64,000 nt of DNA, from contig CAVVCZ010000001.1 in assembly GCA_963746845.1 (NCBI GenBank), forward strand, positions 256,001 through 320,000, given 5' to 3'. The translations under genes were made by a program, and so were the position numbers. Positions within the stretch are counted from its first letter, which is position 1, and each line of letters begins with the position of its first letter. The notes below the pieces were generated by a model that was not told where the DNA came from, ran no database searches, and saw nothing but the letters and a program-made list of their open reading frames with translations. This document shows positions 53,970 through 58,734 of this stretch, piece after piece. Origin of the DNA: an uncultured Chloroflexia bacterium. Lineage in GTDB: Bacteria > Chloroflexota > Limnocylindria > Limnocylindrales > CSP1-4.

Positions 53970-54083
53970 CTGGACTCCTCGCCGGGACCGCCGGTCGGCG
54001 GTCCGAACGCCGCCATCATCGCGGTCGTTGTCCAGTCGCGCCAGTGGTGGCCACCGGTCGGTCGCACCCGGTGGGCCCCGATG

Positions 54084-54866
54084 TCAGTTCCCGAAACCGG
54101 CCTCCACCTCCAGGGCGGTCGGTTCGAACGCGCCGCGCGCGCTCATCAGCTCGCCCTCCTCGAAGTAGATCTCCCGCAGGTCCACCAGGTCGAGGTGGAG
54201 GAACTGGTGGGCACCCGTGACGTGACCTCGGGCGCGGGCGGCCGTGCCGTCGCGAAGCCGCTCCGCGGGCGCGTTCGGGCGGCCCGGAAGGACCACCTCG
54301 ACGCCGCGAGCCAGTTCATCGTCGGACGGCGCCGGGCCCTCGAGGCGGACCGAGAGGAGCTGGTCGAAGTCCGGCGCCTGCCGGATCGTGTGGGCGAGGA
54401 ATCGTTCGCTCCCGCGACCGAACAGGAAGTACGTCAGATCGTCCGGCTTGTCCGCGCCACCGAACCGTGCGGCGAAGACGACCGACCGGATGTCGACGAT
54501 CAGATCGGACAGGGCGTCGATCGCCTCGCCGCCGCGTTCGAGGTGGCCACGGAAGACCGTGGCCCGGAAGGTCGTCCGGGCCGGCGGATCCGGCCGGTAG
54601 AGCGACGACAGGGCGAACTTCTCCGGGAACACGGTGTAGAGGCGCTCGTCCGGGTGCGCGTCGCGCTCGGCCGTCCAGACCGGGACGGCGTCGGCGCCGT
54701 CGCGGGTCAGGCCGACCTCCAGGATGAGCTGGGCGTCGTGCGGCGCCATGAACATCGGCAGATGGGACAGGAAGACCGTGTCGTGGCCCAGGGCGACCAT
54801 GTTGTGACGACCGAAGTCCGCCGGCGGCTCCTCAACGGCGCCGTCGTGGTGGTGACCGTGATCCAT
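54084..54866 (-). CDS. Hypothetical protein with His-rich N-terminus
   Basis: GGAGG RBS; 'MDHGHHHD', 'HNM', 'FLSHLPMF..PHDAQ', 'FRGHLERGG', 'PDFDQ'. Confidence 0.72.
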   Translation of the reverse strand: MDHGHHHDGAVEEPPADFGRHNMVALGHDTVFLSHLPMFMAPHDAQLILEVGLTRDGADAVPVWTAERDAHPDERLYTVFPEKFALSSLYRPDPPARTTFRATVFRGHLERGGEAIDALSDLIVDIRSVVFAARFGGADKPDDLTYFLFGRGSERFLAHTIRQAPDFDQLLSVRLEGPAPSDDELARGVEVVLPGRPNAPAERLRDGTAARARGHVTGAHQFLHLDLVDLREIYFEEGELMSARGAFEPTALEVEAGFGN

Positions 54867-55006
54867 CGTCCCCTCCGCGTGCGCTGGCCTGCTCGGGCGG
54901 ACCCTATCGCCGGCATGTCTGGCCCGCGTCTCGTCGGGACGACCAACGTTGCATCTCGGGTTCACGGCTTGCCGCGGATCCCCGTCCCGGGCAGAATGCC
55001 CCCGCG

Positions 55007-55081
55007 ATGACGCCCACGGAACGCATGGACCAGGGCTGTACCTGTCGCTCCTCTGCCGAGCGGGGTCGGTGCTGTCCCTGA
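55007..55081 (+). CDS. Cys-rich leader peptide (putative attenuator uORF)
   Basis: MTPTERMDQGCTCRSSAERGRCCP* (alternative ATG 55025); 4 Cys codons; follows TTGCCG-N17-CAGAAT (54969-54997). Confidence 0.62.
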   Translation: MTPTERMDQGCTCRSSAERGRCCP

Positions 55082-55112
55082 GCGCGGTCACGACCGCCAA
55101 TGGATGCCCTGG

Positions 55113-55140
55113 GACCCCTGCACGGCAGGGGTCTTTCGTT
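55113..55140 (+). terminator. Intrinsic terminator in the sulfurtransferase leader
   Basis: GACCCCTGC-ACG-GCAGGGGTC stem plus TTTCGTT, 40 nt upstream of the CDS start. Confidence 0.75.
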
Positions 55141-55179
55141 GCCCACGACCTTCCGGACCACAACCCGAGGAACCATCCG

Positions 55180-56529
55180 ATGTCGAGCACCATCTCCGCG
55201 AACGCCCCGACGGTCGTCACCATCGACGCCATCGATCTGCTTCGCCTCCTGTCGGATCCGCGCGTGATCGTGGTCGACACGAGACCGCTGCCATCCTTCA
55301 ACGGCTGGGGGACGGACGAACTGCCGGGCGGACACGTCCCGGGCGCCGTCGCGTTCCCGATCGACTGGCTGCGGTCGGTCGATCAGACCGAGATCGGCCG
55401 GCTCTTCGCGTCGAAGGGGATCGCGCCGGATCGCACGGTCGTCGTCTACGGCGAGCGCGACGGCGACGCGGCGCCTCTTGCCGTCCGCCTGGTCGAGGAC
55501 GGGTTCGGCGACGTCGCCGAGCTCGCGGGTGGCTGGGCCAGCTGGGTCGCTGACCCGGTCCGCCCGGTCGAGTCGCTGCCCAACCATCACCGGCTCGTCC
55601 ATGCCGGCTGGCTCCGGGCCGTCATCGACGGCGACCGGCCGGAGGCGGCGCCGGCTGGTCGGTTCCTCGTCTTCCACGTCAACTTCGGCGTTCCCGAGGA
55701 GTACGCGGAGAACCACCTCCCGGGCGCGCGCTACCTCGACACGAACTGGCTCGAGGATCCGCTCGACTGGAACCGTCGGTCGCCGAAGGAGCTCGACGCG
55801 GCCCTCCGCCACCTCGGCATCACCCACGACACGACGGTGGTCCTGTACGGTCGTGACACCGAGGGCGACGCGGACGAGAAGTGGCCGGGCCGGCGGGCGG
55901 GCCAGATCGCCGCCACACGGGCGGCCCTGATCCTCCGCTACGCCGGCGTCGATGACGTCCGGATCCTGGATGGCGGGTACGACCACTGGGTCCGCGACGG
56001 CAACCCCCTCGAGGAGCGGGTCACCGAGTCGGTGCCGGTCGAGTCGTTCGGGGTGAGCATCCCGCAGCGCCCGGAGCTCATCGTCGACCTCGACGACGCC
56101 AAGGCGATCCTCGCCGATCGCGGCGGGTCGGCCCTGGTCAGCGTCCGGACGTGGCGCGAGCACATCGGCGCGGTCAGCGGCTACAACTACATCGGTCCGG
56201 CCGGTCGGATCGCCGGCGACGTCTGGGGCAACAGCGGATCCGACGCGTACCACATGCAGCACTACCGCACGATCGACAACACGATGCGCGCATACCCGGA
56301 GATCGCCGCAAGCTGGGCGGAGGCGGGCATCACCCCGGACAAGCGGATCGCCTTCTACTGCGGCACGGGCTGGCGAGCGAGCGAAACGTGGTTCTACGCG
56401 TCGCTCATGGGCTGGCCCAACGTGGCCGTCTACGACGGCGGCTGGTTCGAGTGGAGCCAGGATCCGGTCAACAACCCGATCGAGCTGGGTGAGCCCGCCA
56501 CATCGGACGCCGTTCCGGTCCGGCTCTGA
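55180..56529 (+). CDS. Three-domain rhodanese sulfurtransferase (YnjE-like)
   Basis: 'GHVPGA', 'HLPGA', 'TVVLYG', 'ILDGG'; active loop 'FYCGTGWRAS'; 'VYDGGWFEWS'. Confidence 0.92.
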   Translation: MSSTISANAPTVVTIDAIDLLRLLSDPRVIVVDTRPLPSFNGWGTDELPGGHVPGAVAFPIDWLRSVDQTEIGRLFASKGIAPDRTVVVYGERDGDAAPLAVRLVEDGFGDVAELAGGWASWVADPVRPVESLPNHHRLVHAGWLRAVIDGDRPEAAPAGRFLVFHVNFGVPEEYAENHLPGARYLDTNWLEDPLDWNRRSPKELDAALRHLGITHDTTVVLYGRDTEGDADEKWPGRRAGQIAATRAALILRYAGVDDVRILDGGYDHWVRDGNPLEERVTESVPVESFGVSIPQRPELIVDLDDAKAILADRGGSALVSVRTWREHIGAVSGYNYIGPAGRIAGDVWGNSGSDAYHMQHYRTIDNTMRAYPEIAASWAEAGITPDKRIAFYCGTGWRASETWFYASLMGWPNVAVYDGGWFEWSQDPVNNPIELGEPATSDAVPVRL

Positions 56530-56568
56530 TCCCGCCATCGGACCGAAGCTCGGGCTCCCGACCGCGCC

Positions 56569-57699
56569 CTACGCGACGATGCGCGCGACCGCTCGCAGGT
56601 CCTGCGCGAGGAGTTCGGGGACCTCGGTGGCGGCAAAATGGCCGCCGCGCGGCATGTCCGTCCAGTGCACGAGGTTGAACTGCCGGGCCGCGACCGACCG
56701 GCTCGGGGAGCCCGGCTCATCGCCCGGCATGCGGGCGATGCCGACCGGTGCCACGACCGGGCTCGTCGGTCCCGTCCGACGCGTGTGCCGGTATCGGTAG
56801 TAGGGCAGGAACGACGTGCCGATGCTGTTCGTGAGCCAGTACAGCGTGGCCGTCGCCAGCACCTGGTCCGGCGCGAACGGCGGTCCATCACCGCCGTCGC
56901 GATCGCTCCATGCGCGCCACTTCTCCACGATCCACGCGGCGAGCCCTGCGGGTGAGTCATTCAGGCCGACCGCGAGCGTCTGTGGCTTCGTACCCTGGAT
57001 GTCGCCGTAGGCGCTCTCCTCGCGTTCCCACGCGCGGACCCGACGGAGGTAGGACCGGTCCTCCGGATCCGTCGACGCCCGGGCGAGCCGGTCGTCGGAC
57101 CAGTCCGTGGTGAGGTGGATCCCGAGCACGGCCTCGGGGTGGCGTCGCGCGATCGAGATCGTGACGCCGGCACCGATGTCACCGCCATGCGCGATGAATC
57201 GGTCGTAGCCCAGGACGTCGCGCATCAGCTCGACCCACAGCTCGGCGAGCGCGAACGGCGATCGACCGTCCGAGGCCGGGGCGGGCGAGAAGCCGTAGCC
57301 GGGCATCGACGGCACGACGACGTCGAACGACAGGCCGTCGAGATCGTTCGTCAGCCGCGGCAGGATGTCGAGCATCTCCAGGAATGAGCTCGGCCAGCCG
57401 TGGGTCATCAGGAGCGGGATCGAGTCCGGCCCGGCTCCCTTCACGTGGACGAAGTGGACCGGCCGGTCGCCCAGCAGGGCCGTGAAGTTCGGCACGGCGG
57501 CGATCCGGCTCTCCACGGCGCGCCAGTCGAAGTCGGTGGCCCAGTGACGGACCAGTCCGGCGAGATAGTCGTGCTCGACGCCGTAGTCCCAGCCGGACCC
57601 GAGCGGGGCCGGGAGGCGGGTGGCGCCGAGCCTCCGGCGCAGGTCGTCCAGGTCGTCTTCGGCGGCGCGGTAGGTGAAGGGCTGCGGGATGGACGTCAC
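56569..57699 (-). CDS. Epoxide hydrolase (EHN + alpha/beta hydrolase)
   Basis: 'FDWRAVE', 'HGWPSSF', 'PSMPGYGFS', 'HGGDIG', 'DSPAGLAAWIVEKW', 'GGHFAA.E.P'. Confidence 0.92.
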   Translation of the reverse strand: MTSIPQPFTYRAAEDDLDDLRRRLGATRLPAPLGSGWDYGVEHDYLAGLVRHWATDFDWRAVESRIAAVPNFTALLGDRPVHFVHVKGAGPDSIPLLMTHGWPSSFLEMLDILPRLTNDLDGLSFDVVVPSMPGYGFSPAPASDGRSPFALAELWVELMRDVLGYDRFIAHGGDIGAGVTISIARRHPEAVLGIHLTTDWSDDRLARASTDPEDRSYLRRVRAWEREESAYGDIQGTKPQTLAVGLNDSPAGLAAWIVEKWRAWSDRDGGDGPPFAPDQVLATATLYWLTNSIGTSFLPYYRYRHTRRTGPTSPVVAPVGIARMPGDEPGSPSRSVAARQFNLVHWTDMPRGGHFAATEVPELLAQDLRAVARIVA

Positions 57700-57797
57700 G
57701 GCGAATCCCCTGGCTCGTTGCCTTGGATGAACACGAGTTATGCGACGTTAGAGGTGTTTCACCGAGACGTCAACTGGTTATTGCGTGATACTGGTGT

Positions 57798-58382
57798 CTG
57801 TCATGCGGCACGCTCACTGAGGCCCAGCGCCTCGTCGACTTCGTCAACACGGAGGACCTCCGGCGTCCCGATCGCCGAGAGCCGCCGTTCGGACCCGACG
57901 AGGGGCTCGACGATCCCGGGGCGCTCGACCACTGGCTGGCCGAGCACGAGCTCGGGGATGGAGGTGGCGCCCGCCAGGACGACCTCGACCTCGCGCGACG
58001 GCTCCGGACCGCGCTCCGCGGCGTGCTGCGACGCGACGGGAGGGTCGTCCCTGCCGAGGCGACCCTGGTGAACGACGTCGCCCGCGAGCTCCCGCTGATC
58101 ATTCGCGTCGACGGTGCTGCGCGCCCGGTCGCCGAGCCCGTGTCCGATGGGCCGCGCGGCGCGTTGACGCGGCTGCTCGCGGATCTCCTGCTGCTCCGCG
58201 ACGCCGGCGAGCTCGACCGGTTGAAGGCATGCGCGGCCGACGATTGTCGGTGGGCGTTCGTCGATCGCTCACGCCCGGGCATCGGACGGTGGTGCTCGTC
58301 GACCGCGTGCGGCAATCGCGACAAGACGCGCCGGTATCGGGGGAGCCGGCGACCGTCTACGAAAGGGTCTCGTACAGGTTGA
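57798..58382 (+). CDS. ABATE / CGNR zinc-finger regulator; start uncertain
   Basis: 'LVDFVNT' at 57831 is in frame with 'RLKAC...C.WAFVDRSR...RWCSSTACGNRDK'; the only in-frame upstream start is CTG 57798. Confidence 0.8.
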   Translation: MSCGTLTEAQRLVDFVNTEDLRRPDRREPPFGPDEGLDDPGALDHWLAEHELGDGGGARQDDLDLARRLRTALRGVLRRDGRVVPAEATLVNDVARELPLIIRVDGAARPVAEPVSDGPRGALTRLLADLLLLRDAGELDRLKACAADDCRWAFVDRSRPGIGRWCSSTACGNRDKTRRYRGSRRPSTKGSRTG

Positions 58383-58734
58383 TCTCGTTCCCTTCGGGGT
58401 CGAGCAGGTCCGCGTACGCGCCCCACGCCTGGCGGCCCTCGCGGGTGAACGTGATGCCCTGGGCCTTCAACGCCGCCACGAGGTCGTCGAGGCCCGTCGT
58501 CCGGATCGCGGGCACGATCGGGGGCGGGCTCGCCGTGCCCTGCGGCTGGGGAACGCGACGGGCAAACAGCTCCAGCCGGGTCCCGCCGGTATCGAACGCC
58601 ACCCAGTTCTCGCCCGGCCGATAGATCGACGCGTCGGGCTGCTCCAGGATGGGCCGGAAGCCGAGGGTGTCGCGGTAGAACGCGAACATCAGCGGGAAGT
58701 CGTTCGCGCGGACGATGATCAGGTCGAGCGCCAT
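58357..58734 (-). CDS. VOC / glyoxalase family protein
   Basis: 'FYRDTLGF', 'LKAQGI', 'WG.YA...DPEGNEI'. Confidence 0.88.
   Translation of the reverse strand: MALDLIIVRANDFPLMFAFYRDTLGFRPILEQPDASIYRPGENWVAFDTGGTRLELFARRVPQPQGTASPPPIVPAIRTTGLDDLVAALKAQGITFTREGRQAWGAYADLLDPEGNEINLYETLS

Follow-up and report, generated by a model that had tools for sequence, protein, structure and literature searches.

An uncultured bacterium of the Chloroflexia, known solely from metagenome assemblies, carries a short open reading frame (ORF) with several cysteine codons immediately before a sulfurtransferase gene, and the question raised by this locus is whether translation of the ORF governs transcription of the gene. 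The locus lies within a stretch of 64,000 nucleotides (nt) (the window; contig CAVVCZ010000001.1, positions 256,001 to 320,000), to which coordinates refer unless otherwise given. An original prediction, made from the window's letters alone, had proposed a cysteine-sensing attenuator built on an intrinsic terminator. Having assembled a working set of 45 distinct leaders from genomes of one family, we conclude from comparative sequence analysis and folding models that the leader is probably a ribosome-mediated leader-peptide transcription attenuator, reading the supply of charged tRNA-Cys and controlling a monocistronic sulfurtransferase gene. It sits on the + strand of a divergent intergenic region and comprises the following elements.

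54969 to 54974, + strand: −35-like hexamer TTGCCG, identified by sequence reading; its TTG is invariant in an alignment of 16 leaders (A1)
54992 to 54997, + strand: −10-like hexamer CAGAAT, 17 nt after TTGCCG and 9 nt before the leader ATG (55007)
55007 to 55081, + strand: leader ORF of 24 codons, MTPTERMDQGCTCRSSAERGRCCP and stop, from the ORF listing; homologous ORF in 45 leaders
55037 to 55045, + strand: proximal, putatively regulatory Cys codons TGT-ACC-TGT (Cys11, Cys13), identified by conservation across leaders
55045 to 55063, + strand: protector hairpin of the window copy, TCGCTC (55045-50) with GAGCGG (55058-63), from minimum free energy and ensemble folds of 55007-55142
55055 to 55077, + strand: antiterminator 5' strand in the distal part of the ORF (GCCG, GCGGGGTCGG, GC, GTCC), including the GCGGGGTC box, from the fold of 55052-55126
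55084 to 55097, + strand: apical hairpin (P2), GCGGTC/GACCGC, beginning 2 nt past the stop codon and folded by ViennaRNA as 5 base pairs (bp) with a 4-nt loop
55102 to 55126, + strand: antiterminator 3' strand, made of the spacer, the terminator 5' arm, the loop and the first 2 nt of the 3' arm, from fold and ensemble
55113 to 55140, + strand: intrinsic terminator, a 9-bp stem GACCCCTGC/GCAGGGGTC (55113-55133) with loop ACG and tail TTTCGTT (55134-55140), from folding and conservation
55180 to 56529, + strand: gene for a three-domain rhodanese-like sulfurtransferase of YnjE type, 449 amino acids (aa), with three Pfam Rhodanese stretches

The promoter-like pair with its 17-nt and 9-nt spacings, the ORF and the strong terminator all lie where the original prediction had placed them. 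The hairpin after the stop codon is likewise in its place, in a different form from the one first drawn: six pairs around a 2-nt loop cannot close, and the fold settles on five.

In the mechanism that we propose, a sigma-70-like promoter would start the mRNA at the leader ATG or a few nt from it, with initiation of the leaderless type, and the distal half of the 24-codon ORF would act as the 5' strand of an antiterminator, pairing with the spacer and with the 5' arm of the terminator, the apical hairpin lying between the two strands. With Cys-tRNA plentiful, the ribosome would reach the stop codon and melt both the antiterminator strand and the apical hairpin, allowing the terminator at 55113-55140 to form and transcription to end. 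With Cys-tRNA scarce, it would stall with the first proximal Cys codon (55037) in the A site and its front edge ending just before 55055; the antiterminator would then form and RNA polymerase would read into the gene. In the window copy the upstream segment 55045-50 could also sequester the box, so that an untranslated leader would terminate too, as in trp. We infer from the evidence set out below where transcription starts, that the leader is translated, that the ribosome stalls and that read-through responds to cysteine.

Promoter, reading frame and cysteine codons

A promoter-like pair of the form TTGnnn-N16-19-nAnnnT is present in 45/45 leaders, and C24, A25 and T29 of the −10-like region are invariant in alignment A1. 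From −10 box to start codon the leaders measure 9 nt in 27 cases, 8 in eight, 10 in eight, 7 in one and 11 in one; because a spacing of 8 to 10 nt, as found in 43/45, leaves no room for a Shine-Dalgarno sequence, initiation appears to be of the leaderless type. The transcript would start at the leader ATG or within a few nt of it, with a 5' untranslated region of a few nt at most.

The reading frame was examined by picking, for each leader and blind to frame, the promoter-like pair and the nearest start codon. That start codon proved to be in frame with an invariant TGT in 44/45 leaders, across a preceding segment that is unconserved in sequence and runs to 7, 8, 9, 10, 11, 12 or 15 codons before the first Cys; retention of the frame over these seven length classes implies several independent insertions or deletions, all of them multiples of three. 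At least two proximal Cys codons occur in 43/45 leaders, in patterns that range from CxC, CC and CxCC up to CCxCCCC. The second TGT of the CxC is invariant in 43/43 in-frame leaders, and a Cys codon stands two codons before it in 36 of these 43. Counted by frame, TGY triplets number 122 in the leader frame vs 41 and 29 in the other two, and TGT makes up 78 of the 122 in-frame Cys codons (64%) vs 15% of Cys codons in the long ORFs of the genome, the G+C content of which is 71%. Conservation of the Cys codons upstream of orthologous genes, on which the original prediction had staked its case, is thereby borne out.

These counts bear on a different reading of the locus, namely that the conserved RNA is a switch bound by a ligand or protein (riboswitch-like, or the target of an RNA-binding regulator) and that the short ORF is incidental in a G+C-rich leader. 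Short open frames are indeed common at 71% G+C, and conservation as nucleotides extends to the box, to the terminator arms and to the apical hairpin, with the distal part read in two frames. An incidental ORF would not be expected to keep its start codon in frame with TGT through seven length classes in all leaders except one, and the Cys codons are the only conserved bases explained by neither helix; nor does any Rfam family match. We regard a ligand- or protein-bound switch as quite improbable.

Downstream of the CxC, by contrast with the Cys codons, conservation follows the RNA. The bases GCCGAGCAGGGC and GGTGT, 3' of the CxC, are nearly invariant across leaders, yet three leaders (L010, L018 and L054) carry a 1-nt insertion that shifts the frame, giving peptides that end CRAGRAT, CVAGRAA and CEAGRAA respectively, and in all three the distal Cys codon's 'GT' and the GCAGGG box survive as nucleotides despite the shift. 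The distal Cys is also absent from the peptides of L002, L043 and L053. Since the distal bases are kept through a frame shift, they appear to be conserved for pairing and not for the peptide. In the window the single CC (codons 22-23) sits in the antiterminator strand, and the proximal codons are the nonconsecutive C-T-C; consecutive Cys codons (CC or CCC) do occur in the leaders of some relatives. The original prediction had cautioned that a ribosome stalled at the distal CC would cover the proposed antiterminator. That concern falls away, because a ribosome so far along is already committed to termination, and the distal TGT is conserved as RNA, being read in another frame in the three shifted leaders.

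The same observations make it very improbable that the ORF serves to produce a small Cys-rich peptide with a function of its own (perhaps binding metal or sulfur as a partner of the sulfurtransferase), with a leaky terminator setting the ratio of peptide to enzyme mRNA. Such a role would account for the recurrence of a C-x-C ... A-E-Q-G-R-W-C motif in many leader peptides and for the tight pairing of leader and gene at 28/29 loci. Against it, the 'AEQGRWC' bases are translated otherwise in the three frame-shifted leaders, three further peptides have lost the distal Cys, the N-terminus is unconstrained, and pairing explains the conserved bases.

Terminator and predicted antiterminator

The terminator stem has an energy of −19.0 kcal/mol in the window and is paired in 91.5% of cells across the 45 leaders, its basal pair being GC in 16, AU in nine and GU in seven; at least five T occur among the eight tail nt in 40/45. 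In the 110 nt scanned downstream of it, 17/45 leaders (e.g. L003, L006, L008, L010, L012 and L018) have a CCGTCA(C/T) motif, frequently as ACCGTCACGA and usually just 5' of a Shine-Dalgarno-like GAAGGGA; the motif is absent from the window (55141-55179).

To compare the alternative structure, each leader was folded from 15 nt past the first Cys codon to the terminator loop. One long, interrupted antiterminator helix formed in the same register in 16/16 folded leaders. In relatives the box GCAGGG pairs with the terminator 5' arm CCCTGC; in the window GGGGTC and GC pair with GACCCC and GC, and GCCG pairs with CGGC across the loop. A middle helix connects the Arg-Trp-Cys codons with the spacer. 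In 36/45 leaders the apical hairpin begins immediately past the stop codon. The GCAGGG box is nearly invariant at the nucleotide level. The original prediction had paired only 55060-55067 with the terminator 5' arm; the antiterminator now predicted is much longer than those 8 nt, a 5' strand of about 23 nt (55055-77) pairing with 55102-55126.

Covariation was measured on a 45-sequence alignment fitted to the model structure, with 500 shuffles and slid registers as controls. Antiterminator cells were paired in 84.4% of cases vs 80.6% when shuffled (0/500 reached the observed value) and 29-59% in slid registers, and the covariation score was 0.182 vs 0.130 (0/500) and 0.025-0.066. Both sides change in 12/22 antiterminator pairs, chiefly in the apical and middle helices; the apical hairpin is 85.6% paired, with 4/6 pairs altered on both sides (alignment A5). 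In leader L055 a compensatory GCCAGG/CCTGGC replaces GCAGGG/CCCTGC, at positions unconstrained by the terminator, and the antiterminator is preserved. Compared with dinucleotide shuffles, the fold open to the RNA while the 3' arm has yet to be made is the more stable, with a median z of −2.2 and z < −2 in 31/45 leaders (window, −1.93). Checked in orthologous upstream regions, the terminator pairing is conserved, and the predicted antiterminator pairing covaries above its controls. Two lesser arguments were set aside: an RNAalifold pairing of UGUGU with GCACG was judged a weak, G-U-rich artefact, and the number of pairs between the distal upstream ORF (uORF) and the terminator arm was dropped in favour of energy alone, the count being no better than in shuffles.

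Taken by itself the window's leader attracts little attention. A scanner for consensus promoters and terminators called none of either in 54000-57500; it misses the terminator because a G-U extension of the stem consumes part of the T run, and the promoter because CAGAAT and TTGCCG score below its cut-off, so that a stem and tail of this kind fall outside its strict criteria and the null scan is no evidence against either element. The whole 191-nt leader, as a single sequence, folds no more stably than shuffles (z −0.10), and Rfam 15 at permissive thresholds gave the leader only chance-level matches (best E-value 1.2, all far under the gathering score). As we read it, the case beyond chance comes from comparison across relatives, the single sequence being unremarkable. 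That comparison establishes the anatomy of the leader and its conservation.

Folding with a ribosome in place

The predicted consequence of stalling was computed by placing a ribosome codon by codon, freeing the mRNA from 13 nt past the A-site codon and taking the ensemble probability (P) of the terminator pairs; the model is one of equilibrium and assumes the 13-nt front edge. For the window with no ribosome, P(terminator) is 0.97 and P(antiterminator) 0.03, the TCGCTC/GAGCGG protector sequestering the box. With the A site at Cys11, P(terminator) falls to 0.12 and the GGGGTC:GACCCC antiterminator rises to 0.80; at Cys13, Cys22 or the stop codon P(terminator) is 1.0, and that of the antiterminator is 0 or not applicable. 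Across the 45 leaders, P(terminator) has a median of 0.01 for a ribosome at the first Cys codon (below 0.5 in 32/45), rising to 0.96 at the last of the proximal Cys codons and 0.99 once the stop codon is reached. With no ribosome the median is 0.61 and P(terminator) exceeds 0.9 in only 15/45, showing that the protector is not conserved.

A scan relative to the invariant TGT, which leaves out L015 and L057 with their shifted frames, places the transition more finely. Median P(terminator) is 0.00-0.01 from position −5 to −2, then 0.55 at −1, 0.83 at 0, 0.98 at +1 and 1.0 from +2 to +6. The Cys codons conserved at −2 (36/43) and 0 (43/43) are accordingly, in the model, the last positions at which a stalled ribosome leaves the antiterminator free, and it is exactly at the CxC that the modelled structure passes from antiterminator to terminator. 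To this extent the switch operates in silico.

The scan also lends something to the view that the leader senses translation rate or stress in general (starvation, oxidative damage or antibiotics), through the same switch and with the Cys codons not the operative signal. Wherever between −10 and −2 the ribosome stalls, median P(terminator) stays low (0.00-0.19), and the genome has a single leader locus of the Cys type and hence no Cys regulon from which to argue. What makes this view unlikely is the pattern of conservation. The N-terminal codons vary in sequence and number, so that only the Cys codons are conserved within the zone competent for stalling (43/45); the rare TGT is enriched four-fold over genome usage; and the target is a sulfur enzyme.

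Several observations weigh against attenuation by tRNA-Cys as we have described it. Leader L015, out of frame through a 1-nt deletion, is left with a single Cys codon, in L047 the proximal Cys codons are reduced to one, and L057 is frameshifted, its ORF keeping CCCC, crossing the terminator and ending at the ATGA of the gene; the single-base changes in L057 and L015 are either errors of metagenome-assembled genomes (MAGs) or real variants. L002 has no T tract. The covariation is modest, the core pairs GCAGGG:CCCTGC hardly vary (and, being near-invariant, carry no covariation information either way), and the alignment used for pair counts was itself fitted to the model structure. Shuffling the distal uORF leaves its pairing with the C-rich arm about as frequent as in the real sequence (observed 5-9 pairs, shuffled mean ~5.4), only the energy differing. 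In 13/45 leaders the equilibrium model predicts no antitermination at the first Cys codon; its outcome depends on the assumed 13-nt front edge; and, since stalls anywhere 5' of the Cys codons also give a low P(terminator), it does not single those codons out. A look-up among public sequencing runs listed no RNA run that contains the stretch. Finally, the genome contains only one Cys-type leader locus.

Distribution of the leader

Among 24 same-genus genomes searched, 18 have a full-length ortholog of the rhodanese gene (59-71% identity) and a nineteenth has one split over two contigs. The leader is present at 15 of these 18 full-length loci; in the other three (L013, L017 and L019) a gene resembling a cyclic-nucleotide regulator ends just upstream. 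L017 and the leader L059 come from unpublished genomes. The sister family, with genomes of ~1.1 Mb, yielded only distant two-domain matches to the rhodanese.

A covariance model built from 16 leaders and run on an even draw of 151 family genomes matched 31 of them, in 15/49 genera, with one copy each. The ortholog lies 3' of the leader in 28/29 fetched family loci, the remaining one (L040) being cut by the contig end; at L051 and L060 the sole reported ortholog alignment starts ~450-500 nt past the leader. Run on a draw from the whole phylum, the model gave no match in 147 genomes outside the family or in the 3 other family genomes that the draw included. A species-wide collection was examined through its best 80 orthologous loci, which are labelled mostly Chloroflexota or Ca. 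Limnocylindrales, with some actinobacterial, and so place the system in a lineage other than the mycobacteria, as originally supposed. The leader precedes 48 of these best 80; many of the 48 overlap genomes already counted and are therefore not added to the total.

Within the window's own genome, an nhmmer search with the leader alignment returned only the locus itself, and a scan of the 3.56-Mb sequence for a Cys-rich short ORF (sORF) with a terminator gave no other convincing match. Scanning for a promoter with a leaderless Cys sORF gave four matches, of which the other three are unlike the leaders, one being out of frame inside a gene and two apparently within coding sequence.

The sulfurtransferase gene

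The YnjE-like rhodanese that the original prediction had placed downstream is confirmed by its three Pfam Rhodanese stretches and by its match to E. coli YnjE (3ipo_A, E 4.5e-93); the best solved relative is 6h98_A, 'Sulfurtransferase' (E 7e-115, residues 17-439). We take 6H98 and 6KTV to be the anaerobic ergothioneine synthase EanB, an assignment that a literature search on 6H98, 6KTV and 6KTW did not confirm. Key residues of EanB, according to a review, are Tyr353, Cys412 and Arg417. In our alignment the C-terminal catalytic CGTGWR loop ('fycgtgwr') and the SGYNYI tyrosine are identical to those of 6h98_A. The EgtD-type histidine trimethyltransferase domain PF10017 presumably marks the partner enzyme, EanA. 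It was not found in the window's genome (92% complete), and in the 151 family genomes it gave weak partial matches only, two of them at cut-off. A role in ergothioneine synthesis (EanA with EanB) was considered and is unsupported, because the partner methyltransferase was not found.

The gene looks monocistronic, and a convergent gene follows it in many loci. The upstream neighbour of the leader varies among relatives; in the window it is a divergent ORF of 260 aa (54084-54866, − strand) starting MDHGHHHDG, with no Pfam or NCBIfam match. Further downstream a 218-aa ORF (57770-58426, − strand) likewise matched nothing in Pfam or NCBIfam.

Other upstream regions and a second leader

The 32 of the best 80 orthologous loci that gave no covariance-model match were inspected upstream. 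In 14 of them, most with actinobacterial labels, a conserved A+T-rich element TAGTCGCTTTACTTTG...TAGGAT stands in place of the leader. In fuller form it reads TAGTCGCTTTACTTTG(T/G)A(T/A)ACT...TAGGAT and lies ~40-150 nt 5' of the ortholog at L065, L074, L084, L087, L091, L094, L100, L102, L107, L113, L129, L132, L133 and L138; the MAGs concerned are labelled mostly Gaiellaceae, Actinomycetes or Thermoleophilia. The element resembles a promoter combined with an operator to which a DNA-binding regulator might bind. Five other loci (L076, L077, L080, L090 and L134) keep the TTGC...-N17-CAnAnT promoter and have wholly or partly deleted the attenuator, and these look like natural loss-of-attenuator variants; at L134 and L077 a short Cys-free ORF overlaps the ATG of the gene as ATGA. 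L117 has a weak copy of the leader. At L111, labelled Ca. Dormiibacterota, a different short ORF ending GSHCSCT lies ~200 nt 5' of the ortholog, a single case that may be an independent CxC leader in another lineage.

At four further loci (L063, L066, L092 and L125) the rhodanese ortholog is preceded by a different, second leader, which encodes a peptide ending MCMRWRPRRAEDGV. A −10-like box shortly precedes its start codon, and a terminator of its own comes after the ORF. Matches to the conserved part of this leader occur in 46/151 family genomes, and Rfam at permissive thresholds gave it chance-level matches only. The copy in the window's genome, at locus L170, lies outside the window, with further copies among L145-L174:

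G000:C4:175106-175148, − strand: second leader

Of the loci fetched, 29 have a downstream ORF; at most of these, and in the window's genome, the second leader precedes genes for pyridoxal-phosphate (PLP) enzymes of Cys/Met metabolism (PF01053, MetY-like; Pfam confirmed 3/7 products tested, and the others were judged by N-terminal sequence). It precedes OsmC-like genes at three loci and a carbonic-anhydrase-like gene at one. At the rhodanese loci L092 and L125 its MCM becomes MCTC or MCPC. It is probably a Met/Cys-sensing attenuator, and its presence before the rhodanese ortholog provides an independent link between the sulfurtransferase and control by sulfur amino acids.

Comparison with known attenuators

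In its layout the leader resembles the classical trp, his and leu attenuators of enterobacteria, as outlined in the introduction to bioRxiv 10.1101/834739: a short ORF carries codons for the sensed amino acid, one ribosome-edge 5' of the antiterminator strand, and mutually exclusive antiterminator and terminator hairpins (predicted ones in the present case) are followed by a T tract. The window copy even has a protector of the 1:2 type, although this is not conserved here. It departs from those attenuators in sensing Cys, in an ORF that is apparently leaderless and without room for a Shine-Dalgarno sequence, in its Chloroflexota lineage, in having one long antiterminator helix with a wholly coding 5' strand and an apical hairpin abutting the stop codon, and in targeting a single sulfurtransferase gene instead of a biosynthetic operon.

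The precedent to which the original prediction had appealed, the polycysteine leaderless sORFs of mycobacteria, agrees in its regulated sulfurtransferase and differs in its mechanism. As Canestrari et al. describe them (bioRxiv 10.1101/834739), those sORFs act by unmasking a Shine-Dalgarno site and not by intrinsic termination. Like Ms5788A and Rv0815A of their 'Cys ribulon', the present leader appears to be a leaderless-type sORF with Cys codons before sulfur genes; the M. smegmatis operon includes a putative thiosulfate sulfurtransferase (cysA2), and low cysteine is expected to switch it on. The mycobacterial sORFs have consecutive Cys codons at their 3' end, pairing with the Shine-Dalgarno sequence of the next gene, whereas here a CxC lies mid-ORF and an intrinsic terminator ends 40 nt before the gene. 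No relationship in sequence between the two was seen, nor was a test for one made. The paper counts sORFs with at least two consecutive Cys codons, which the window's proximal codons do not form, and the uORF segments pair with the terminator region 55102-55126 and not with the ribosome-binding region at ~55165-55179, so that no Shine-Dalgarno sequestration is seen. To the knowledge of Canestrari et al. in 2020, uORF-mediated attenuation for cysteine was undescribed, and a 2026 paper on M. tuberculosis, where it cites the cysteine case, gives it as translational only.

Another precedent is uORFC-8-2, which Brewer et al. (2021; PMC8632094) describe before cysS in Rhodobacterales as a predicted ribosome-mediated, terminator-type Cys attenuator. 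In both, a uORF with conserved Cys codons is accompanied by a terminator stem and U run, and both are bioinformatic only. In uORFC-8-2 two tandem Cys codons at about positions 14-15 lie inside the first stem, and the element is given there as occurring only before cysS in alpha-proteobacteria; here the CxC is 5' of the helices, the gene encodes a triple rhodanese, and lineage and architecture are different. Candidate Cys leader peptides before cys and cbs operons of Actinobacteria were proposed from comparative genomics by Seliverstov et al. (2005; PMC1262725). These too are short ORFs before sulfur amino-acid genes, with runs of Cys codons; conserved terminator hairpins are wanting in the leaders as described in that paper, where Rho is suggested, whereas here the terminator and antiterminator are the best-conserved parts. 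Our literature search returned no report of such an attenuator in Chloroflexota or before a triple-rhodanese gene. We regard the leader as a well-supported new example of a textbook type of switch; in our searches, terminator-type Cys attenuation appeared before only as the cysS prediction.

Implications

The leader offers a comparatively well-supported case of classical, terminator-based attenuation for cysteine. It also brings uncultured Chloroflexota within the range of leader-peptide attenuation, in a form that apparently uses leaderless initiation. An RNA family could be founded on the covariance model and the alignment of 45 sequences. A wider reading, which we put forward tentatively and hold to be doubtful, is that the Limnocylindria of soil possess a small, ribosome-read sulfur regulon composed of two unrelated and interchangeable leaderless attenuator cassettes (CxC and MCMRWRPRRAEDGV) swapped among genes. 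Were this true, the swaps would run among sulfurtransferase, OsmC-like and carbonic-anhydrase-like genes, and the sulfurtransferase would be a sulfur-scavenging enzyme induced by cysteine starvation rather than an ergothioneine enzyme. A sulfurtransferase tied to cysteine supply, as the attenuator would have it, is in itself a usable functional lead.

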